A stretch of DNA of 34,985 nt. Origin: Pseudomonadota bacterium. GTDB lineage: Bacteria; UBA10199; 2-02-FULL-44-16; JAAZCA01. The stretch lies in NCBI GenBank assembly GCA_043798915.1, contig JAZDOG010000077.1, forward strand, positions 1 to 34,985. The letters are read 5' to 3'. The notes under the pieces are model-generated. The model had not been told where the DNA came from. It searched no databases and saw only the letters and a list, made by a program, of their open reading frames with translations. Position numbers and translations under genes: made by a program. Shown here piece after piece: positions 7,884 through 20,361 of the stretch; position 1 is the stretch's first letter; the number at the start of each line of letters is the position of its first letter.

Positions 7884-7965
7884 CAATTCTTACACCCGGA
7901 TACCTTCCTTGACTTTTTGCGCGGGCTGCAGATAAATGCGCGGACTTCCCAAAGGAGCGCTTGAG

Positions 7966-9708
7966 ATGAAACAGGAACTCGAAAAGCGAATCAGCGGCAT
8001 CGCCGGCCGGTATCCCCGCAAGAGGTCGGCAATCCTGTCCGCCCTGGATATTATGCAGAGGGAGGGCGGCGGGAGCCTCTCCTCCGACGCGATCAAAGAG
8101 ACGGCGAGCGCCTTCGGCATCTCCGTCGGCGAGGCCTATGGAATCGCGTCATATTATTCGATGTATAATACGAAGCCGGTGGGAAAGTACCATGTTCAGG
8201 TGGACACATGCGTGCCGGCCTTTTTGAGCGGCGCCGGCGAGATACTGAGTCATCTGCAGGGCGCCTTCGGCATCCTGCCCGGGGAGACGACAAAGGACGG
8301 CATGTTCACCTTGTCGGAGGTGCAGGACCTGGCTTCATGCGGGACATTGCCCGTCATTCAGGTGAACGATGTTTATTATGAAAATCTGACTGTCGAGAAG
8401 GCGGATGAGCTCATCGCCGTCCTCAAGACCGGAAAGATGCCCAGGCCGGATCAGAGTTCGAATTTCGGCACTGTCTGCAACATCCTTCTGAAAAATCGCG
8501 GGGAGCCCAGGGCGACCGATATCGCCGTTTACAAAAAGGGCGGCGGCTATGCGGCGCTGGCCAAGGCCCTCAAAATGCAGCCGGCTGCCATAGTGCAGGG
8601 GGTGAAGGAAGCGATGCTGCGCGGCAGGGGCGGGGCCGGATTCTCCGCTGGAACGAAATGGAGCTTTCTTTCCAAAGGCGATGCTCGGCCCGTGTATCTA
8701 ATATGCAATGCAGACGAGGGCGAGCCCGGCACATTCAAGGACCGGCAGATCATGCAGTACGATCCTCACCTGCTCGTCGAGGGCATCGCCATCTCGGCGC
8801 ATGCGATCGGCGCCAGGAAGGCCTTCATCTACATACGCGGAGAATTCCGCTGGATCTCGGAGATACTGGAAAAGGCCGTCGAACAGGCAATGGTTGATGG
8901 ACAGCTCAAGCACGTGGAGATCGTGGTGCACAGGGGCGCAGGCTCCTATGTCTGCGGCGACGAGACGGCGCTCATCGAATCGCTGGAGGGCAAGCGGGGC
9001 AATCCGCGCGTGAAGCCGCCGTTCCCGGCCAATATCGGGTTGTACGGCTGCCCCACCATCGTCAACAACGTGGAGACGCTCTCATGCGTCCCCTTCATAG
9101 CGCAAAACGGGCCGGGGGCGTTCAAGGCGATCGGCACGGCGGGCAATTTTGGGCCGAAGCTCTACGGCGTCTGCGGCGATGTCCAGAAGCCGGGCGTGTA
9201 TGAGTACCCCATGGGCACCCGGCTCGAGACGATCCTGGAGGCCGCGGGCGGCGTGAAGGGGAGGCTGAAGGCGGTGATCGTTGGCGGGCTCTCCGTGCCG
9301 ATCCTCAAGGCGGAGGAGTGCAGGGGGCTTGCGCTGGACTTCGACTCCTGCCTGAAGGCGGGCACGATGCTCGGCTCCGGCGGCATCATCGTCATAAACG
9401 ACACCGTCTCCATTCCGGACCTGGCGCTGCGCACGATCAAGTTCTATGCCCACGAGTCATGCGGGCAGTGCGTGCCATGCTGGAGCGGTTCGCATGCGAT
9501 CGAGCGCCTGCTCCACGGGATTGTGCACGGCAGCGGCGCGGCAGCGAATATCGACCTCATCCTCGATCTGTGCAGGACGATCAAGGGTTCGACGATCTGT
9601 CCTATGGGCGATGCGTTCTCCATCCCTGTCGAAGCGATGGTGAAGAAGTTCAGAGATGAATTTGATGCGCTGGTCCGCCGCTCGGAGGGGGGTGCTGCAC
9701 ATGGATAA
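7966..9708 (+). CDS. NuoE-NuoF fusion (FMN/NADH-binding diaphorase), likely partner of the FDH
   Basis: AGGAG RBS and ATG 7966. N-terminal NuoE-like domain, then RGRGGAGF, CNADEGEPGTFKD, GSYVCGDETAL, NNVET and HESCGQCVPC...C. Confidence 0.92.
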   Translation: MKQELEKRISGIAGRYPRKRSAILSALDIMQREGGGSLSSDAIKETASAFGISVGEAYGIASYYSMYNTKPVGKYHVQVDTCVPAFLSGAGEILSHLQGAFGILPGETTKDGMFTLSEVQDLASCGTLPVIQVNDVYYENLTVEKADELIAVLKTGKMPRPDQSSNFGTVCNILLKNRGEPRATDIAVYKKGGGYAALAKALKMQPAAIVQGVKEAMLRGRGGAGFSAGTKWSFLSKGDARPVYLICNADEGEPGTFKDRQIMQYDPHLLVEGIAISAHAIGARKAFIYIRGEFRWISEILEKAVEQAMVDGQLKHVEIVVHRGAGSYVCGDETALIESLEGKRGNPRVKPPFPANIGLYGCPTIVNNVETLSCVPFIAQNGPGAFKAIGTAGNFGPKLYGVCGDVQKPGVYEYPMGTRLETILEAAGGVKGRLKAVIVGGLSVPILKAEECRGLALDFDSCLKAGTMLGSGGIIVINDTVSIPDLALRTIKFYAHESCGQCVPCWSGSHAIERLLHGIVHGSGAAANIDLILDLCRTIKGSTICPMGDAFSIPVEAMVKKFRDEFDALVRRSEGGAAHG

Positions 9709-10162
9709 GATAGAACTGAATCAGCTGTTCTCGGTTGCGATCCAGCGGGAGGTAGAATCGCATGAGTTTTACCTTCAGGTGGCCGGGCGGGTTGAAAATC
9801 CGAATGTGAAGGAGGTGTTCAACCGGCTTGCCCAGGACGAACTCGGGCATAAAGAGCTGCTGGAAAGGTTCAAGAGCGATCCCACCCTCGTCATGAAGTT
9901 CAATGGAACTCCTCTCGTCGATTTCAAGATAGCGGAATCATCCGGGTTGCCCCGCCTGTCGATCGATATGAAGCCAGCCGATGCCATAGCGCTTGCCATC
10001 AAGAAGGAACAGCAGGCGATGGAATTCTATCTGGGCCTGGTTCGAAAGGCGGGCGATCCGGAGATGAAAAAGATATTTGAGAGCCTCTCCAAAATGGAGC
10101 TGGGCCACAAGGTCAAACTCGAGAACGCGTTCGTCGAAATCGGCTATCCGGAAGTATTCTAG
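9701..10162 (+). CDS. Ferritin-like/rubrerythrin-family di-iron protein
   Basis: Two E..(FY)...ELGH di-iron repeats. GGAGG RBS; ATG overlaps the nuoEF end. Confidence 0.88.
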   Translation: MDKIELNQLFSVAIQREVESHEFYLQVAGRVENPNVKEVFNRLAQDELGHKELLERFKSDPTLVMKFNGTPLVDFKIAESSGLPRLSIDMKPADAIALAIKKEQQAMEFYLGLVRKAGDPEMKKIFESLSKMELGHKVKLENAFVEIGYPEVF

Positions 10163-10167
10163 CCGAT

Positions 10168-10259
10168 AGAAAGGATGGGACTGGTGTCCCATCTGGCCTT
10201 CAAAGCCAGCAGCGGGCGGATAACACCGTCTGTGGCAGGTTCGATTCCTGCCCTTTCTG
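10168..10259 (+). tRNA. selC: tRNA-Sec (anticodon UCA), 7/5 fold, CCA not encoded
   Basis: Acceptor AGAAAGG/CCTTTCT with G discriminator. D arm TGGGAC-TGGT-GTCCCA (6 bp stem, 4 nt loop). Anticodon arm CTGGC-CTTCAAA-GCCAG. Long variable arm GCGGGCGG/CCGTCTGT. T arm GCAGG-TTCGATT-CCTGC. Confidence 0.96.
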
Positions 10260-10261
10260 CA

Positions 10262-11650
10262 ATGCGCCTCCCTGCGGTCGGCAGGATCATCACGCGTCCG
10301 ATGCTCATCCCGATGGTTGAGCGATACGGGCATGCATTCGTGGCGAAAGCCATCCGCGACGAAATCGGATATCTTTGTTCAGATGCCGGCGTGGATGTTT
10401 CCGATATCGAACTCATCTGCCGGCGCGTCGCCGCTCGAATCGAGAGCCTTGCCGCGCCATCCATCGTTCGCGTCCTGAATGCCACCGGCGTCGTCCTGCA
10501 TACGAATCTTGGCCGGGCGCCGCTTGGCAGATCCACGGCCGAACGAATCGCCGAGATCGCGGCTGGGTACAGCAATCTGGAGTTCGACCTCAATCGCGGA
10601 AGGCGGGGAGACAGGCAGGCGCGCTTGAGGGAGCTTCTGAGCATCATCACCGGCGCCGAGGATTCGCTTGCAGTGAACAACAATGCGGCCGCGGTGCTGC
10701 TCGTGCTCAAACGGCTGGCGGCGCGAAAGGAAGTCATCGTCAGCCGCGGCGAGCTCATCGAGATAGGCGATTCCTTCCGCCTCCCCGAGATCATGCGGGA
10801 GAGCGGCGCGAAGCTGGTGGAGGTGGGCACCACCAATCGCACTCGGATTTCGGATTACGAGCGCGCGATCAGCGACAGGACCGCGATCCTCTTCAAGGTG
10901 CACCACAGCAATTTCCGGATGGAGGGCTTTGTCGAGGATGCGCCGATCGGCAGCCTCTCGAAACTCGCGCGCGAGCGCGGGCTGATCGCTGTCTATGACT
11001 TGGGCTCCGGCCTGCTCGCGCGCCCGGAGGGGCTGCCGCTCAAGGACGAGCCCACGGTGCGCGATGCGATCGAGGCCGGAGCGGATCTCGTCACCTTCAG
11101 CGGCGACAAGCTGCTCGGGGGCGCGCAGGCCGGGCTCATCGCGGGCCGCAGGGAGCTCGTTGCCAAGCTTGCAAAATCCCCTCTCATGCGGGCGCTGAGG
11201 CCGGGCAAACTCACGATGGTTGCGATCGAGGACCTGGCCCTGCAATACCTCGATGGAGCGAGGCTGCTTCAGGAAAATCCTGTATTCAGAATGATCGGCC
11301 GCGGCGCAGATGATCTTCGCGCCGTTGCGGAGTCCTTCGCCGCGCGCCTGCAGAAAGCAGATATCGCAGTGCGGATAGTCGAGAGCGACGGGCAGGTCGG
11401 CGGCGGCGCGCTGCCCGGCACGTTGCTCCCGGGCTGGGCCGTGGAGATCGAGCCGCCTGTCGATGGAACGCGCGCGGCAAAGCGTTACGCCGAAGCGCTC
11501 TTTGCAGCGCTTCTCAAGGCCAAGCCTCCGGTCCTGGGCATTCTGCGCGAGGGGAGATTCATGCTGGATGTGCGCACGCTCGATGGGGAAGATATTGAGA
11601 TCGCTGCCAGCGCAGCCATTGCGGCTGTGCGAGTTGTTTCAGAACCCTGA
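10262..11650 (+). CDS. selA: L-seryl-tRNA(Sec) selenium transferase (start uncertain; frame is open from ATG 10175)
   Basis: NATGVVLHTNLGRA, YSNLEFDL, VNNNAAAV, SRGELIEIG, EVGTTNRT and FSGDKLLGG (PLP lysine). Confidence 0.96.
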   Translation: MRLPAVGRIITRPMLIPMVERYGHAFVAKAIRDEIGYLCSDAGVDVSDIELICRRVAARIESLAAPSIVRVLNATGVVLHTNLGRAPLGRSTAERIAEIAAGYSNLEFDLNRGRRGDRQARLRELLSIITGAEDSLAVNNNAAAVLLVLKRLAARKEVIVSRGELIEIGDSFRLPEIMRESGAKLVEVGTTNRTRISDYERAISDRTAILFKVHHSNFRMEGFVEDAPIGSLSKLARERGLIAVYDLGSGLLARPEGLPLKDEPTVRDAIEAGADLVTFSGDKLLGGAQAGLIAGRRELVAKLAKSPLMRALRPGKLTMVAIEDLALQYLDGARLLQENPVFRMIGRGADDLRAVAESFAARLQKADIAVRIVESDGQVGGGALPGTLLPGWAVEIEPPVDGTRAAKRYAEALFAALLKAKPPVLGILREGRFMLDVRTLDGEDIEIAASAAIAAVRVVSEP

Positions 11651-13621
11651 AGCGCTCTGTGCGAGCCTCGCCGTGCCCGCCTGAGTGATAAAGCGAAAAT
11701 CCCCTTCGCGGCGCGTGAGACCTTCCCGGTCGTAGAGGCCGATCAGAAGCAGGCATATCCTGCGATTGCCGTTCACGATATCCCGGAATTGCGCGACCGT
11801 GGTCCCATCTTTGTTCCGATGGAGATGTTCGAGCAGCCGCATGCGGCAGCGATCCACCGTCTCTCTCCAGACATAGACATCCTCGATGGGCACGATCTCG
11901 CCGTTTTCCGCAAGATGTTTGAGGAGTATCTTTGAATCCTTTGCGCCGATCTTGAATTGTTTTTCAACTTCGGATTCGAGATCGGAGAGAGAGGCCACGT
12001 TCATCCTGGCTTCCGAGAATCTTTTTCGAAGATGCGAGAGCGAGGCCTCCTGCGCCCGGGTCGGAGCCGGTTTGAAACCCGCCAGCAGCCAGCCGCCGGA
12101 TGCCGAGCGGACGATCTTCCCGGCATCGGACATCATCTGCAAGAGCCCCTCCGTGATGATCGCGCCGTGTTCCTTTGCGCCGACGCCCAGTCTTGCCGCA
12201 AAGCTCGCGGCGTCCAGCCCCTTTGAGCTCAAGGGATATTGATGATGGCGCTCGACCAGGGCCCGCCGCACGATGCGCCACATGCGCTCCTGCGTTGTCG
12301 CGGAGAGCAGTGCTCCTCCCGCAGCGGTTGTGATGGAAATGATGTCGGCCTCGATGTCTCCCTCTTCGATCGCCGCCGCGATGTCATCGCTCTTCCTGCC
12401 CAGCGCCTGCGCCAATTCCGCGATGCCCACAAACGTGATGTGCTTTCGCACCTCGGATGCGATTTGCTCTTTGAGCCCGCCCTCAGCCCTGCTTCGCACC
12501 TGCTCGATGAGTTCTGCGGTCCTCCGGCGATGGTGAAGCGGTGCGGGATCGATCACGCGGCCGCCGCCGAGCGTGCGATCCGCCGAGCAGCTGCGGAGTA
12601 TGAAGCGATCGCCTGTCTGCAGCGTCGGCGGCCGTTCGAGTTCGATCTGGGCCAGGACCTTTTCGCCTGAGCGCGCCAGGTCGCGATCGAGAAGATGTAT
12701 CCGACAGATGCTTTCATGAGTTCCGGCATAGAAGAGAGCCTTGCTGTATAGCTTGAGCTGGGCCCTGGGATCGATGAGCCTCAACTCGGCATCGACGCGC
12801 GGCGTGGCATCGAGCAGCCGATCTGCGAGGAGCATCCCTTTCTCGAATTCGCTGCACGCGAACCCCGCGAGGTTGAGCGATGCCCTGTCCCCGGCGACGA
12901 CCTCCTGAACTTCCTTTCCGTGGTTCTCTATCCGGCGCACGCGGACTTCGATGCCCTTGGGCGCGACGTAGAGAGTGTCCCCGCTTCGTATCCTGCCGCC
13001 CATGACCGAACCGGTCACCACAGTCCCGAAGCCGGCCACGGAAAACGCCCGATCGATGTACATGCGAAAAGTTCCGCTGCATTCCCTTTCCGGAAGCCTC
13101 GCGACGACGCCCTCGATGGCCTTGATCAACTCGCCGATGCCTGCGCCCGTCAAGGCGCTGACCGGTATGATCTCGGCGTCCTTCAAGAAAGTTCCGGACA
13201 ACGCCTCGCGCGTTTCCTCCACTGCCATGCCGACGAGATCGCCGCCCGCAAGATCGGACTTCGTGATGGCAACCAGCCCGTCAGCTACGCCGAGATTTTC
13301 AAGTATCGCTATGTGTTCCGTCGTCTGGGGCATCACCCCGTCGTCGGCTGCGACGGTGAGCAGGGCGAAATCCACGGAGCATGCGCCCGCCAGCATGTTG
13401 TGAATGAAGCGCTGATGGCCCGGCACATCGACGATGCCGATGCGCTGCGGTCCCGCGCTGCCGTCATCCGGCAGGTCGAGATGCGCAAAGCCCGGGTTGA
13501 TGGTGATGCCGCGCTCCTTCTCCTCCGGGTGGGTGTCGCAGTCGATGCCGGTGAGCGCCTTTATGAGAGTGGTCTTGCCATGATCCACGTGGCCGGCTGT
13601 GCCCATGATAAGATGTTTCAT
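11639..13621 (-). CDS. selB: Selenocysteine-specific elongation factor
   Basis: MKHLIMGTAGHVDHGKT, EEKERGITI, DVPGH, TKSD and C-terminal winged-helix region (D..GLTRR.GD.R). GGGAG RBS before ATG 13621. Confidence 0.96.
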   Translation of the reverse strand: MKHLIMGTAGHVDHGKTTLIKALTGIDCDTHPEEKERGITINPGFAHLDLPDDGSAGPQRIGIVDVPGHQRFIHNMLAGACSVDFALLTVAADDGVMPQTTEHIAILENLGVADGLVAITKSDLAGGDLVGMAVEETREALSGTFLKDAEIIPVSALTGAGIGELIKAIEGVVARLPERECSGTFRMYIDRAFSVAGFGTVVTGSVMGGRIRSGDTLYVAPKGIEVRVRRIENHGKEVQEVVAGDRASLNLAGFACSEFEKGMLLADRLLDATPRVDAELRLIDPRAQLKLYSKALFYAGTHESICRIHLLDRDLARSGEKVLAQIELERPPTLQTGDRFILRSCSADRTLGGGRVIDPAPLHHRRRTAELIEQVRSRAEGGLKEQIASEVRKHITFVGIAELAQALGRKSDDIAAAIEEGDIEADIISITTAAGGALLSATTQERMWRIVRRALVERHHQYPLSSKGLDAASFAARLGVGAKEHGAIITEGLLQMMSDAGKIVRSASGGWLLAGFKPAPTRAQEASLSHLRKRFSEARMNVASLSDLESEVEKQFKIGAKDSKILLKHLAENGEIVPIEDVYVWRETVDRCRMRLLEHLHRNKDGTTVAQFRDIVNGNRRICLLLIGLYDREGLTRREGDFRFITQAGTARLAQSASGF

Positions 13622-13661
13622 CAGCGATCGCTCCCGGCAAAGGTTGATAAAATGGAGCTTC

Positions 13662-13733
13662 GCTCTAGCAGAGGCCGTGAACAGGGTCAACCCCCACGAA
13701 TGCCCTTGACGATCTTCGCGCAATCCGTATATT
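13662..13733. promoter_or_regulatory. Back-to-back sigma70-like promoters for selB (-) and fdh (+)
   Basis: Plus strand: TTGACG (13706-13711)-N16-TATATT. Minus strand: TTGACC (13690-13685)-N17-TAGAGC, with TG one base upstream of the -10. Confidence 0.4.
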
Positions 13734-13785
13734 TCGGCGCTGATCTATATTTCCCGATAATCGCTGAAGATGCGGAGGGTGCTCC

Positions 13786-16524
13786 ATGGCGATGAAGATG
13801 ACCATCGATGGGCAGGACGTCGCTTTCAATGAAGGCCAGACGGTTCTGCAGGCGGCGCGTGACAACGGGATATACATTCCCTCGCTCTGCTATCACCGCA
13901 AGACGGGCGCGGCAGGCCGCTGCAGGGTCTGCGTCGTAGAGATCAAGGGCATGCGCGGCCTGCAGACTGCATGCACGGTGATCGCCGGCGACGGCATGGG
14001 CGTGCTGACGGACACGCAGCTGGTGCAGGATACGCGCCGCATGGTCGTGAATCTGCTTCTCTCCAGCGGCCAGCACAATTGCATCTCCTGCGAGCAGAAT
14101 GCGGGCTGCGAGCTCCAGGATGCCGCTTATCATCTGGGCATCGAGACGCCGGCCTTCGTAATCGATGAGCCGCAGCCTGCCAGGGACGACTCCAGCGAGA
14201 TGGTCGTCCGCGACATGCGCAAGTGCATTCAGTGCGGCCGATGCGTCGCGGGCTGCAAATCGGTCGTGGTCAACGAGGTCCTGGAATTCGAGCAGCGGGG
14301 GGCGAGCGCCAGGGTCGTCTGCGACTTTGACCTCCCGATGGCGGAATCCACCTGCGTGCAGTGCGGCGAATGTTCGCAGCTTTGCCCGGTCGGCGCAATC
14401 ATCGACAAGAAGTCGGTGGGCATGGGCAGGCCGTGGGAATTGAAGGCCATGAACACGACGTGCCCCTACTGCGGCGTCGGCTGCCAGCTCACGCTGCACG
14501 TGGATGAGGCAAAGAACCGGATCGTAAAGTCGACGGGCCGCGAGGTCCTGCCCAACGACGGCATGCTCTGCGTCAAGGGCCGCTATGGCTTCGAGTTTCC
14601 GTCGAGCCCGAAGCGCCTTGCGCATCCGATGATCAAGAAGAACGGCAAGCACGAGCGCGTCTCGTGGGACGAGGCGCTCGACCACACGGCGGGCCGCATC
14701 AAGGAGATAGTGGCCCGCGACGGGCCGGACGTGTTCTCTGCCTTCGGCTCGGGCCGCATCACGAACGAGAACAACTACGCTATCGCCAAATTCGCGCGCG
14801 CGGTGATCAAGACGAACAACGTCGATCACTGCGCTCGAACTTGACACGCCCCCACCGTCGCCGGTCTGGCGGCAAGCTTCGGAAGCGGTGCGATGACGAA
14901 CTCGATCCGGGAGATTGAGGACGCCCACGTGCTCTTCGTCATCGGGTCGAACACCACAGAGGCGCACCCGATCATCTCCTACTACATGAAGCGCGCGGTG
15001 AAGAAGGGCGCGACGCTCATAGTCAACGACCCGCGCAGGATCGACCTCACGCGCTGGGCCACTCTGCACATTCAGCACAAGGTCGGCACCGACGTCGCCT
15101 ACATCAACGGCCTCATCAACGAGATATTCAAGAACGGATGGGCGGATGAGGAGTTCCTCAAAAATTGCACCGAAAACCCTGACGACATCCGCAAATGGGT
15201 GGAAGGCTATCCGGTCGAGAAGGCCTCCGATATCTGCGGCGTGCCTGTGGAGGCTATGAAGAAGGTCGCGCGGATACTGGGCGAATCCAGGAGCGTCTCC
15301 ATCTGCTATACCCTGGGTATCACCGAGCACATCTGCGGCACGGACAATGTGAAGGCGCTGGCAAACCTGCAGATGGTGCTCGGCAACATCGGCATACCTT
15401 CGGCCGGGGTGAACCCGCTTCGCGGCCAGAACAACGTGCAGGGCGCGTGCGACATGGGCGCGCTGCCCAACGTCCATCACAATTATCAGCCCGTGGATAA
15501 CCCGCAGGTCGCGGAGAAGATGGAGAAGGCCTGGGGAGTCACGGGCCTCTCGCTGAAGCCCGGCTACAAGATGCCCACGATGCTGCGCAAGGCGCGGGAT
15601 GGCGGCACCAGGATACTCTACTGCGTCGGCGACAACACGGTGCAGACCGAGCCGAACATGGCGCACACGATCAAGGAGCTCGAGGCCCTGGAGTTCTTCG
15701 TCGTCTGCGACATCTTCCCCACGATCACCACGCAGTACGCGGACGTCATCTTCCCCGACACCTCCTGGGGCGAGGAGGACGGCACGTTCACCAACACCGA
15801 GCGCCGCGTCCAGCGCGTGCGCCGTGCGCTGACGCCGCCGGGCGAGGCGCGTTCTCACTGGTGGGTCATGCAGGAGCTGGGAAAGCGCCTCGGCGTCGAT
15901 CTCGGCTTCACTTCGGCCGAGGCCATCTGGGAGGATATGCGCCGCACCGCCACGAGCTGTGCGGGTATCACCTATGATCGCATCGAGAAAATCGGGCTCC
16001 AGTGGCCCTGCCCCACGCTCGAACATCCGGGCACGCCGTTCCTCCATGTGTCCGGAAAGTTCACGCGTGGCAAGGGGCTCTTTCACAAGCTCGATCACAT
16101 ACCGCCCGCCGAGGTGCCGGACAAGGAGTACCCATTTGTCCTTTCGACCGGCCGCCGCCTCTATCACTACCACTCGGCCACGCAGACGCGGAACTCGGCC
16201 GGATTCGAGGGGCTTTTTCCGGAAGAGCTGCTCGAGCTGCATCCCGGCGATGCCAAAAAGCTCGGCATCAAGACGGGCGATATCGTGAAGGCGAAGAGCC
16301 GCCGGGGCGAGATCACGCTCAAGGCATGGGTCACCGAGCGCTCGGCGCCGGGCGTATGCTGGACGTCGTTCCACTTCGTCGAGGCATGCGGCAATGTGCT
16401 CACGAATGACGCGTTCGATACGGTCACGGAAACGGCCGAGTACAAGGCCTGCGCGATCAACGTCGAGAAGGTGTCCGATGGCGCGGCGCCCTTGATGCGC
16501 ATAGAGCGACAGGCGAGGCCATGA
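13786..16524 (+). CDS. fdhA: Selenocysteine-containing formate dehydrogenase alpha subunit (Mo/W-bisPGD) with NuoG-like Fe-S N-terminus, 912 aa
   Basis: ORFs 13786-14844 and 14893-16524 share one frame, joined through TGA 14842-14844 in NNVDHCART-U-HAPTVAGL. Also PLRGQNNVQGACDMG, CPYCGVGC, and [2Fe-2S] and [4Fe-4S] motifs. The selABCD genes are adjacent. Confidence 0.96.
14845..14880 (+). promoter_or_regulatory. Bacterial SECIS element
   Basis: Stem GTCGCC/GGCGGC with GGTCT apical loop starting 12 nt after the UGA. Same layout as the fdhF-type SECIS. Confidence 0.85.
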
Positions 16525-16536
16525 CGGAATTGCTTC

Positions 16537-16576
16537 CCCTCCCCTTTGTAAGGGGAGGGCTGGGGTGGGGTAGATC
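16537..16576 (+). repeat. REP-like element copy C
   Basis: CCCTCCCCTTTGTAAGGGGAGGGctgGGGTGGGGTAGATC, matching copies A, B and D. Confidence 0.88.
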
Positions 16577-16762
16577 ATGTTGCGCGAAGAGATCAAGCAT
16601 GCTGTCATCCGAGCCGCTGTTGAAACGGGCGGAAAGAAGCGGCTCTCCTGCGCGGATGCTCTCAGGCTCGCCGCAGAGCACGGCATCGCTCCGCAGGAGA
16701 TCGGCAGGATCTGTGACCAAGAGAACATCAAACTCCAGTCGTGCCAGCTCGGTTGCTTCTGA
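16577..16762 (+). CDS. Small Cys-containing hypothetical protein (LSC...IC...CQLGCF)
   Basis: 61 aa with natural composition and GC-ending codons; directly downstream of fdh. C-terminal CQLGCF motif recognised from uncharacterised anaerobe proteins. Confidence 0.7.
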   Translation: MLREEIKHAVIRAAVETGGKKRLSCADALRLAAEHGIAPQEIGRICDQENIKLQSCQLGCF

Positions 16763-19130: not shown

Positions 19131-20171
19131 TTATGCGATGACCGTTATCCGCCCGCTCCCGTCGAATTCGCCTATCCTGTAAACATCGACGCCGCGTTTT
19201 TTCGCCTCTTCCTCGAAACGCGCTGCCATCTCGGGAGCGATTGCCGCCATGAGTCCGCCGGAGGTTTGCGGGTCAAATATTGCGATGCGGTACGCATCGT
19301 CGACGCCTGCGCGAATGTCGACGCGGCCTCCGAACGTATCGCGATTGCGGAATGCGCCGCCGGGAACGGTCTCATCAGCGATATGGCGAAGGACGCCGGG
19401 CAGGAGCGGCAGCGGCGCGCAGGAGATCGATGCGCCGAGTTCCTTTGCCTCTCCAAGCATTCCGCATAAGTGTCCGATGAGGCTGAAGCCCGTGACATCG
19501 GTGAGGGCATGCGCCCCGGCTGCGATTGCCGCCTCGCTCGCGCCGCGGTTCAAGGTCGTCATGCTGGCCACCGCCGCCGTTTTTTCCTCTTCGGTCGCCG
19601 TTCCTCCCTTGAGCGCAGTGCAGATGATCCCCGTTCCCAGGGGCTTCGACAGATAGATGAGATCGCCCGGCCTTGCGCCTCGGTTACACAGGATGCGATC
19701 GGGGTGCACCGTGCCTATGACGGCCATGCCGTACTTCGGCTCCTTGTCGTGGATGGAGTGCCCGCCGCCTACGATGCATCCCGCCGCCTGTGCGGCGTCG
19801 GCGCCTCCGGCCAGGACTTCCGACAGCATCCCCATCGGCAGGCAGTTGGACCAGCACACGAGGTTGAGCGCCATGAGAGGCGTTGCGCCCATCGCATAGA
19901 CATCGGAGATGGCGTTTGTGGCTGCGATCCTGCCCCAGTCGCGCGGGTCGTCGACGAGCGGCGTGATAAAGTCCGTCGTGAAACATACCGCGAGATCGTC
20001 TGAGACTCTTACCACCGCCGCGTCATCCAGCGTTTCCGGCCCCACGAGCAGCCTGGGATCCACGCAGCGTGCCAGGCGCGCAACTACTTTTTTGAGATCG
20101 CCAGGCCCCATCTTGGCGGCACAGCCGCCGGCTTCCACCATCTGAGTGAGTCGAATGGATTTTTCAGACAT
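19131..20171 (-). CDS. selD: Selenide, water dikinase (Cys form)
   Basis: GGCAAK, DDAAV, DFITP, AATNAISDVYAMG, GGHS, TDVTGF and DPQTSGGL. GAGGAG RBS before ATG 20171. Confidence 0.96.
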   Translation of the reverse strand: MSEKSIRLTQMVEAGGCAAKMGPGDLKKVVARLARCVDPRLLVGPETLDDAAVVRVSDDLAVCFTTDFITPLVDDPRDWGRIAATNAISDVYAMGATPLMALNLVCWSNCLPMGMLSEVLAGGADAAQAAGCIVGGGHSIHDKEPKYGMAVIGTVHPDRILCNRGARPGDLIYLSKPLGTGIICTALKGGTATEEEKTAAVASMTTLNRGASEAAIAAGAHALTDVTGFSLIGHLCGMLGEAKELGASISCAPLPLLPGVLRHIADETVPGGAFRNRDTFGGRVDIRAGVDDAYRIAIFDPQTSGGLMAAIAPEMAARFEEEAKKRGVDVYRIGEFDGSGRITVIA

Positions 20172-20361
20172 AAAATTGCTCCTCTCGTTCATGAAATTGC
20201 GATGATGCGCTAAATATAGCGTCATCTCTGCCATTGCGGCCGGGCAATCTAGGAGGTTCAACAGTGGATGTCAACATGCGGAGGCGTATCCATTTTTGCC
20301 TCGACATTTCAATTGGGTTCAACTAAGGGGCTTCCGTTCTTGGGGGAGCTGACAAGACAGT

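Follow-up and report, generated by a model that had tools for sequence, protein, structure and literature searches.

A selenocysteine tRNA gene two nucleotides upstream of selA, and recurring start codons at tRNA 3' ends in one bacterial order

The subject of this study is a 34,985-nucleotide (nt) stretch of DNA from a Pseudomonadota bacterium (contig JAZDOG010000077.1, assembly GCA_043798915.1), called the window here and numbered from its first base, in which selC, the gene for the selenocysteine tRNA (tRNA-Sec), ends only two nucleotides before the start codon of selA, whose product takes this tRNA as its substrate. I consider it about an even chance (a probability of roughly 0.5) that selC is co-transcribed with its neighbours as one mRNA-tRNA-mRNA and that a nearly leaderless selA mRNA is set free when the 3' end of the tRNA is processed. 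Behind this proposal lie the anatomy of the junction and four further observations: SelA is complete from the abutting ATG at 10262, the order selC-selA is conserved, start codons abut tRNA 3' ends repeatedly, and the genome encodes both a CCA-adding enzyme and ribonuclease (RNase) P RNA. From the sequence I infer the co-transcription, the 3' cut with its site and its enzyme, and the leaderless translation. I propose that the junction represents tRNA punctuation in a bacterial form, one that is not restricted to selenocysteine.

The source genome (G000) is a metagenome-assembled genome of 105 contigs and 2.34 Mb. L-numbers denote loci from relatives, species-representative genomes or metagenome contigs (L093 and L101 being metagenome contigs). 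Forty related genomes were searched for SelA, and a wider search added 80 further SelA loci from species-representative genomes, several of them too short upstream to judge. The selC-selA set (n = 20 loci) comprises the window, six relatives (L002-L007) and 13 of the wider loci. Gaps are counted as the bases between the discriminator, G73, and the likely start codon.

The features around the junction, all on the forward strand, are as follows (ORF, open reading frame).

7936..9708, +: NuoF-like flavoprotein gene (Pfam Complex1_51K, 2Fe-2S thioredoxin-like and NADH_4Fe-4S domains)
9656..10162, +: rubrerythrin/ferritin-like ORF (PF02915, E 6.4e-17), start uncertain, stop TAG at 10160-10162
10163..10167, +: gap of 5 nt between the rubrerythrin-like stop and the tRNA 5' end
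10168..10259, +: selC, tRNA-Sec(UCA) of the 7/5 'Cloacimonetes type' (ARAGORN, Rfam, 26-sequence architecture table, minimum-free-energy cloverleaf)
10260..10261, +: 'CA', the entire spacer between G73 and the selA ATG (from the sequence)
10262..11650, +: selA (TIGR00474, PF03841)
10163..10261, +: frame of selA, open through the tRNA, with in-frame ATG 10175, GTG 10184 and GTG 10232

Results

The ends of the tRNA

ARAGORN places a tRNA-Sec with a UCA anticodon at 10167-10260, the sole tRNA-Sec that it finds in the whole genome, and Rfam RF01852 matches 10167-10259 (65 bits against a gathering score of 47, E 2.7e-12). Both presume a 13-base-pair (bp) acceptor/T stack and therefore take in one extra base on the 5' side. 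I tabulated the architecture of related tRNA-Sec genes in the loci studied (26 distinct sequences), and every one has a 7-bp acceptor, a 1-nt linker, a 6-bp D stem, a 4-nt D loop and a 5-bp T stem. With 7 acceptor, 5 T and 6 D pairs, the tRNA of the window has the 12-bp stack of the 'Cloacimonetes type', which is described in the accessible part of the Secmarker paper (PMC5330540). G73 is invariant among the 26; nine encode CCA, always directly after G73; and the pair 1:72 is A:U in 19, G·U in four, U·G in one and mismatched in two. The placement of G73 and CCA sets the tRNA of the window at A10168-G10259, with G10259 as the discriminator. These are the ends that the initial annotation had assigned, and they prove more accurate than those of either program; standard tRNA finders place the ends of 7/5 tRNA-Sec one base off, a point that matters for annotation.

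The minimum-free-energy (MFE) fold retains the cloverleaf and pairs its flanks to each other, and the 5' end of selA folded alone gives z = -0.7. The tRNA leader (10150-10167) can pair within 10260-10299, with selA codons 5-10, enclosing both the tRNA and the start codon. At -14.6 kcal/mol, a value that 3-5% of shuffles reach, this pairing is marginal, and I set it aside as too weak.

A relative of this tRNA in a Cloacimonadales metagenome-assembled genome (L011:1383-1477) is 95 nt long, has tRNA-Sec architecture and lies directly upstream of selA, and it carries a GCA (Cys) anticodon. Such anticodon variants of tRNA-Sec are said to have been reported by Mukai and colleagues in 2016.

The start of SelA

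The tRNA begins 5 nt past the stop of the ferritin-like ORF, and its discriminator is followed by C10260 and A10261 alone before ATG 10262 (MRLPAV...), as first described for this junction. CCA is not encoded. There is no room for a Shine-Dalgarno sequence (SD) outside the tRNA, and the 20 nt before ATG 10262 are the 3' strand of the tRNA plus CA and hold no SD core.

From ATG 10262, SelA scores 504 bits against TIGR00474 (cut-off 267.9) and covers profile positions 3-448 of 455 from residue 2 onwards. PF03841 matches with E 4.8e-126 and PF12390 with 22.0 bits, exactly at its cut-off of 22. The N-terminal SelA domain of Pfam, Se-cys_synth_N, begins at the LPAV motif. Among 16 aligned SelA N-termini that of the window is the shortest, with only MR before LPAV where the others have 5-19 poorly conserved residues. 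Because the profile and Pfam matches set in at residue 2-3, with the conserved R-[LI]-P block directly after, a start downstream of 10262 is excluded, and with it the initial annotation's caveat that SelA might begin at a later ATG with an SD of its own. Any start upstream of 10262 would lie inside the tRNA.

Such a start was the second account that the initial annotation offered, and the frame does permit it: no stop occurs in the selA frame back to 10163, and ATG 10175, GTG 10184 and GTG 10232 are in frame. The motif AAAGGA lies 8 nt upstream of GTG 10184; it is the purine-rich 5' acceptor strand, common to the 26 related tRNA-Sec genes. One of the three frames of the tRNA is free of stops, so about a third of junctions should be open by chance, and the selA frame falls in the stop-free frame in four of the 20 loci, about the chance rate (it is open through the whole tRNA in the window, L011 and L023, and through most of it in L007). 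The spacers of L002-L005 contain in-frame stops, and in L006, L009, L014, L017, L034 and L093 such stops lie within the tRNA itself. In L006 and L093 no start codon follows the stop within the tRNA, which leaves the abutting ATG as the sole possible start there. The open frame is not conserved among relatives, and I judge the three in-frame codons of the window to be chance features that are probably not used as starts. Gene callers could choose the longer in-frame ORF 10175-11650, which runs through the tRNA.

selC and selA in other loci

Six of the 40 related genomes have SelA, and all six have tRNA-Sec directly upstream of its gene on the same strand, at gaps of 120 nt (L002), 37 nt (L003), 78 nt (L004), 69 nt (L005), 4 nt (L006) and 68 nt (L007). 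Thirteen of the 80 wider SelA loci likewise have a tRNA-Sec or Sec-like gene directly upstream, at gaps of 15-190 nt. The gap is at most 4 nt in only two of the 20 loci (2 nt in the window, and L006) and at least 15 nt in the other 18; the 2-nt spacing of the window is exceptional among them. The initial annotation had looked to relatives for conserved spacing. The order selC before selA is conserved across the 20 loci, whereas tight spacing is confined to the window and L006. Normal spacers and in-frame stops, which would have told against its reading, are what most relatives have, with L006 abutting and the frame open in four of the 20.

In the closest relatives, L002 and L003 (SelA 72-75% identical), the order nuoF-like, rubrerythrin-like, selC, selA is kept. 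Their spacers are 133 and 73 nt before the tRNA (5 nt in the window) and 120 and 37 nt after it (2 nt in the window); the lineage of the window lost both spacers around the tRNA. The C-terminus of the rubrerythrin-like protein (...VEIGYPEVF) is identical in both relatives, and the NuoF-like gene, the first of the same-strand block in the window, also precedes the rubrerythrin-like gene in both. By eye, the spacers beside tRNA genes in L002, L003, L104-L106, L112 and L144 contain short tandem or inverted repeats with units of 6-9 nt.

The junction in L006 reads G73-CAAA-ATG. A scan of metagenome contigs for the 3' end of this tRNA followed within 5 nt by ATG gave 15 hits, two of which are real abutments. 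L093 has the same acceptor sequence as the window and joins selA as G73-CCCG-ATG; its SelA has 19 residues before LPAV and no other possible start. L101 (tRNA-Sec at 457-549, - strand) joins selD, not selA, as G73-CGCC-ATG, and there no stop interrupts the selD frame anywhere in the tRNA. The other 13 hits were discarded as chance ATGs; in L090 and L100 the real selA start lies about 60 nt further on.

Start codons at other tRNAs

Abutment extends beyond tRNA-Sec. On G000 contig C83:35393-36173 (- strand, L103), tRNA-Cys, tRNA-Leu(UAA) and a pyrE-like gene stand in a row, and the 230-aa (amino acid) pyrE-like ORF begins 1 nt after tRNA-Leu(UAA), as N73-C-ATG (N73 being the discriminator). Its name records likeness only (TIGR00336, 61 bits, under the cut-off of 106.8). 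The protein occurs in 21 of the 41 genomes searched. I examined 20 loci, leaving out L119, in which the match is cut by a contig end, and found tRNA-Leu retained upstream in 13. Measured from N73, five of these ATGs lie at 1, 4, 4, 5 and 5 nt, two at 19 and 31 nt, and six at 48-108 nt; those at 4-5 nt are L114, L115, L118 and L120, which with G000 make 5/13 abutting. All of the proteins have matching N-termini, M-x(1-3)-F-D/N. Five non-abutted genes (L104-L106, L108 and L109) have a GGAGG-type SD, and the abutting ones have none.

On G000 contig C80:5127-5832 (+ strand, L142), tRNA-Arg(CCU) is followed after 3 nt by a conserved 209-aa gene whose product matches no family and begins MNIPFFPNTGDGTHC. 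The protein is present in 20 of the 22 genomes searched, and 13 loci have tRNA-Arg(CCU) upstream. In five of these the start lies 2, 3, 6, 8 or 9 nt after N73 (3 nt in G000, the others being L161, L157, L156 and L152). In L161 tRNA-Arg encodes CCA, and the final A of this triplet doubles as the A of the next gene's ATG.

Judging from these loci, start codons that touch tRNA 3' ends appear to be a recurring and tolerated feature of this order, and abutment seems a general habit of the clade and not a selenocysteine speciality. Several further candidates were left uncounted. CysE after tRNA-Pro(GGG) has an ATG 8 nt past N73 that is probably not its start, as relatives align from query residues 11-28, and a PBP1-type gene after tRNA-Ser(UGA), also with an ATG 8 nt past N73, has an ambiguous start. 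I regard as spurious a low-complexity 827-aa ORF after tRNA-Glu(CUC), which begins in a terminator-like hairpin, and the ORFs after tRNA-Arg(UCU) and tRNA-Tyr, which overlap the next tRNA.

Processing machinery and initiation signals

All 47 tRNA genes of G000 encode C74. CCA is encoded in ten, N73-C-A in 28 and N73-C-other in nine, and because N73-C-A is the commonest form, the 'CA' after G10259 is the norm of this genome. As a tRNA 3' trailer, one encoded C and then A is an unusual pattern, and a uniform one. With CCA encoded in only ten genes, a CCA-adding enzyme is needed in any case, and a 491-aa ORF matches that family (PF01743, 76.5 bits). RNase P RNA is present (RF00010, 288 bits), as are RNase E/G and RNase Y; RNase J was looked for in G000 and not found. 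The only candidate for an RNase Z is a conserved metallo-beta-lactamase protein of 282-330 aa, whose G000 copy (C99:91849-92733, - strand) scores a weak 68-70 bits against RNase Z cut-offs of 252-293; its only sequence matches in the PDB are RNase Z (E 2e-9 to 5e-4).

The 16S rRNA retains the CCUCC anti-SD. In a crude genome-wide census that takes first ATGs as starts (n = 1179), an SD core is absent at about 57% (673/1179). A further count places an SD core before 41% of first ATGs, compared with 16.5% of internal controls. SD-independent initiation is therefore common in G000. Promoter and terminator scans of the window, L093, L006 and L103 gave nothing above shuffles near the tRNAs. TATTCT, noticed by eye 7 nt before A10168, was rejected as a promoter; it is made up of the final codons of the upstream ORF and lacks a -35 partner.

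The selenium and formate dehydrogenase island

Downstream and opposite of selA lie the following.

11639..13723, -: selB, convergent with selA (Pfam GTP_EFTU, Beta-barrel_SelB, SelB-wing_3)
13786..16524, +: formate dehydrogenase alpha subunit gene (fdhA), with an in-frame TGA at 14842-14844
19131..20261, -: selD, selenophosphate synthetase (TIGR00476, 363.6 bits, above cut-off; AIRS and AIRS_C domains)

The likely start of selB is an ATG near 13621 (MKHLIMGTAGHVDHGKT). The 3' ends of selA and selB overlap by 12 nt (11639-11650) with no terminator between them; in several other lineages the genes form a selC-selA-selB operon. The fdhA gene appears as two ORFs in the same frame, split inside the Molybdopterin domain, and the context of its TGA is CART*HAPTVAG. 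This TGA is a selenocysteine codon, which makes FdhA a client selenoprotein that needs selC and SelA, and the NuoF-like protein is likely the diaphorase subunit of formate dehydrogenase. A 1014-aa ORF opposite fdhA (13687-16731) matches no family and is probably spurious. Past selB there are also a MobA-like gene, a molybdate transporter and a formate transporter, and the window carries a selenium and formate dehydrogenase island. With tRNA-Sec, selA, selB, selD and a UGA-containing selenoprotein gene all present, the selenocysteine (Sec) system looks complete and in use, and so both genes of the junction, selC and selA, have to be expressed.

Discussion

How the selA message may arise

The reading that I favour would run as follows. 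selC would lie within a same-strand operon (nuoF-like, rubrerythrin-like, selC, selA) transcribed as one mRNA-tRNA-mRNA precursor. RNase P would cut at A10168, a 3' endonuclease would cut at or just after G10259, and the CCA-adding enzyme would complete the tRNA. The downstream product would be a selA mRNA with its 5' end 0-2 nt before AUG 10262, translated without an SD as a leaderless or near-leaderless message, with SelA starting at that codon. Left unprocessed, the AUG would sit 2 nt from an acceptor helix that is stable in the MFE fold, which should hinder binding of the 30S subunit.

Several lines of evidence point this way: the gaps of 5 nt and 2 nt around the tRNA, which leave no SD outside it; the exclusion of a SelA start downstream of 10262; the independent abutments in L006 and L093 (selA) and L101 (selD) and at tRNA-Leu(UAA) and tRNA-Arg(CCU); and the conserved selC-selA order, together with a Sec system in use and a genome that encodes RNase P RNA and a CCA-adding enzyme. 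The junction combines two of the properties sought in a near-leaderless message, the lack of an SD and an AUG start, with two of those sought in tRNA punctuation, a tRNA flanked by same-strand ORFs and a genome with RNase P and a CCA-adding enzyme. It was the first account in the initial annotation that tRNA 3' processing frees a near-leaderless selA mRNA, and the abutments in L006, L093 and L101 and at other tRNAs favour it, still as a proposal. Its further suggestion, that production of SelA is coupled to that of its substrate, fares unevenly: the gene order is conserved and co-transcription is plausible, whereas abutment is a clade-wide habit and not a device for SelA. The coupling is better put as conserved co-location and probable co-transcription.

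Several points weigh against this reading. The canonical RNase Z model (TIGR02651) scores above its cut-off in none of the 22 genomes of the order, so that a precise cut after G73 is not assured, and RNase E/G and RNase Y are present and could cut inside selA instead. As many genes of G000 have no SD core, the missing SD of selA is not special in itself. I saw no clear genome-wide sign of a leaderless signature; a -10-like TANNNT is weakly enriched at -16 to -12 before SD-less starts. A search of sequencing runs found no RNA run that holds the stretch, only two DNA runs (0.05 share of words). Finally, the 209-aa gene starts with TTG in G000 and with ATG in its relatives, and TTG is a poor initiation codon for leaderless messages in E. 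coli.

More tentatively, and at somewhat less than even odds, the order as a whole may use true tRNA punctuation, in which excision makes the translatable 5' end of the next gene. A divergent RNase-Z-like enzyme would then cut tRNA genes that are mostly N73-C-A, and the arrangement would serve selA, selD (in one lineage), the pyrE-like gene and the 209-aa gene.

Other explanations of the junction

The strongest competitor, though an unlikely one, is that SelA is initiated at ATG 10262 on an unprocessed or only 5'-processed transcript, independently of an SD and with the folded tRNA attached 2 nt upstream, so that excision is not needed. The 673 of 1179 first-ATG starts without an SD core would make such initiation unremarkable in G000, and the available text of a mycobacterial preprint (10.64898/2026.03.03.709296) considers translation from a selC-selA co-transcript. 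Against it, only 2 nt separate the AUG from a stable acceptor helix, in the MFE fold the cloverleaf persists and its flanks are paired, and transcription of the tRNA is complete before the AUG emerges. The 30S subunit needs roughly 15 unpaired nt upstream.

Somewhat less probable again is an either/or scheme, in which RNase E/G or Y cuts in the 5' part of selA and exonucleases mature the tRNA, so that tRNA-Sec and the selA message compete. The presence of these two nucleases where no canonical RNase Z is found in 22 genomes of the order fits such a scheme. So does L161, where the A shared by CCA and ATG means that both products cannot come intact from one molecule without CCA repair. Alternative expression has been proposed for a nested selC/selB pair, in the accessible text of Mukai 2021 (PMC8124441). 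The scheme sits badly with the 37 of 47 tRNA genes that do not encode CCA and with the conserved RNase-Z-like protein, and translation of the selA message would still require that the tRNA be removed or unfolded. In the bacteria that have been studied, tRNA genes without CCA go with a precise endonuclease.

I hold initiation inside the tRNA, at GTG 10184, ATG 10175 or GTG 10232, to be improbable. It would give SelA a tRNA-encoded extension of 10-29 residues and set translation in competition with tRNA folding. The frame is open through the whole tRNA, the SD-like AAAGGA is well spaced before GTG 10184, and a start at GTG 10232 would give an N-terminus of a length like that of relatives. This account, the second of the initial annotation, nevertheless fits the relatives poorly: the frame is open in only four of 20 loci, about what chance would give, and the abutting L006 and L093 have in-frame stops within the tRNA. 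Moreover, the supposed SD belongs to a purine-rich acceptor strand that 26 relatives share as a tRNA feature, SelA is complete from ATG 10262 by its family profile, and the candidate starts lie in stable helices of the MFE fold.

An assembly error, or a recent deletion that silenced selA, is very improbable: the window does come from a 105-contig metagenome-assembled genome and its own junction was not found in another assembly (in a search that may omit the records of this genome), but selA is intact, with 72-75% identity to its closest relatives, G000 has retained selB and selD together with one selC and an fdhA that contains a TGA, and comparable junctions occur in independent assemblies (L006, L093 and L101) and at two other tRNAs.

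Relation to known systems

A literature search for bacterial genes whose starts abut tRNA 3' ends, which covered few subscription journals, found only Mukai 2021 (PMC8124441) and the mycobacterial preprint (10.64898/2026.03.03.709296). In the accessible text of the former, a single Discussion sentence notes a termite-gut lineage with a selCAB operon in which tRNA-Sec ends at -2 of the selA start. The pair, its order and essentially its spacing are the same as in the window, with no room for a leader. That sentence is a passing mention, without analysis of the start, the frame or relatives in the text available. Unlike that case, the junction of the window is placed here among 20 loci, its frame is found to be unconserved, and it is one instance of a habit that involves several tRNAs. 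The selC-selA junction has, then, a one-line precedent, and for the wider multi-tRNA habit the search found no description.

The same partial text describes selC nested in the selB ORF of Alphaproteobacteria, where excision is predicted to leave a leaderless downstream mRNA (PMC8124441). There too, tRNA-Sec lies inside an mRNA of the Sec machinery, and the tRNA and protein outputs are linked in idea. In the nested case SelB gains a conserved C-terminal extension by translation of the tRNA, whereas in the window the tRNA precedes selA and the frame is not conserved.

In mycobacteria, according to the part of the preprint available (10.64898/2026.03.03.709296), the genes are ordered selC-selA-selB, paired-end RNA sequencing shows selC co-transcribed with selA, an SD is often absent in several species, and a regulatory role of the tRNA is proposed. 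As in the window, selC stands immediately upstream of selA on the same strand. The mycobacterial spacers are 11-75 nt, CCA is encoded and the tRNA is of another type, in contrast to the 2 nt and missing CCA of the window. Autoregulation of the E. coli selAB kind, which that text attributes to a leader hairpin resembling a selenocysteine insertion sequence (SECIS-like) before the selA SD, has no counterpart here, as the window has no leader.

The following comparisons concern transcripts that join tRNAs and protein genes more generally. The thrU-tyrU-glyT-thrT-tufB operon of E. coli carries tRNAs and a protein gene on one transcript, and its tRNA cluster recurs on contig C82 of G000. The last of the E. 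coli tRNAs is separated from tufB by a leader with an SD, unlike the arrangement in the window. Animal mitochondria use tRNA punctuation and leaderless mRNAs, as reportedly set out by Ojala, Montoya and Attardi in 1981. ORFs directly flank the tRNAs there as they do in the window, and in both RNase P and a 3' endonuclease would free the mRNAs, with CCA added later. This is the closest mechanistic analogue. The window differs in belonging to a free-living bacterium with a 2.3-Mb genome, a normal anti-SD and only a few tRNAs involved, in which no canonical RNase Z was detected and the RNA steps are those that I infer.

Conclusions

The part worth following is the multi-tRNA pattern in combination with tRNA genes of the N73-C-A form and with the lack of a canonical RNase Z. 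In one free-living lineage, start codons recur 1-5 nt past tRNA 3' ends, and they do so at more than one tRNA. The junction also offers a concrete test case for ideas that Mukai 2021 (PMC8124441) and the mycobacterial preprint (10.64898/2026.03.03.709296) raise, without testing them in the text available. For selenocysteine biology, the arrangement would be a simple way to tie the supply of SelA to the transcription and maturation of its tRNA substrate. If the order does use true tRNA punctuation, each SelA message would arise as a by-product of the maturation of one tRNA-Sec, and binding of SelA or SelB to the unprocessed tRNA could control both outputs. tRNA processing, as a step that makes an mRNA translatable, has hitherto been associated with mitochondria; it could then take that part in free-living bacteria as well.

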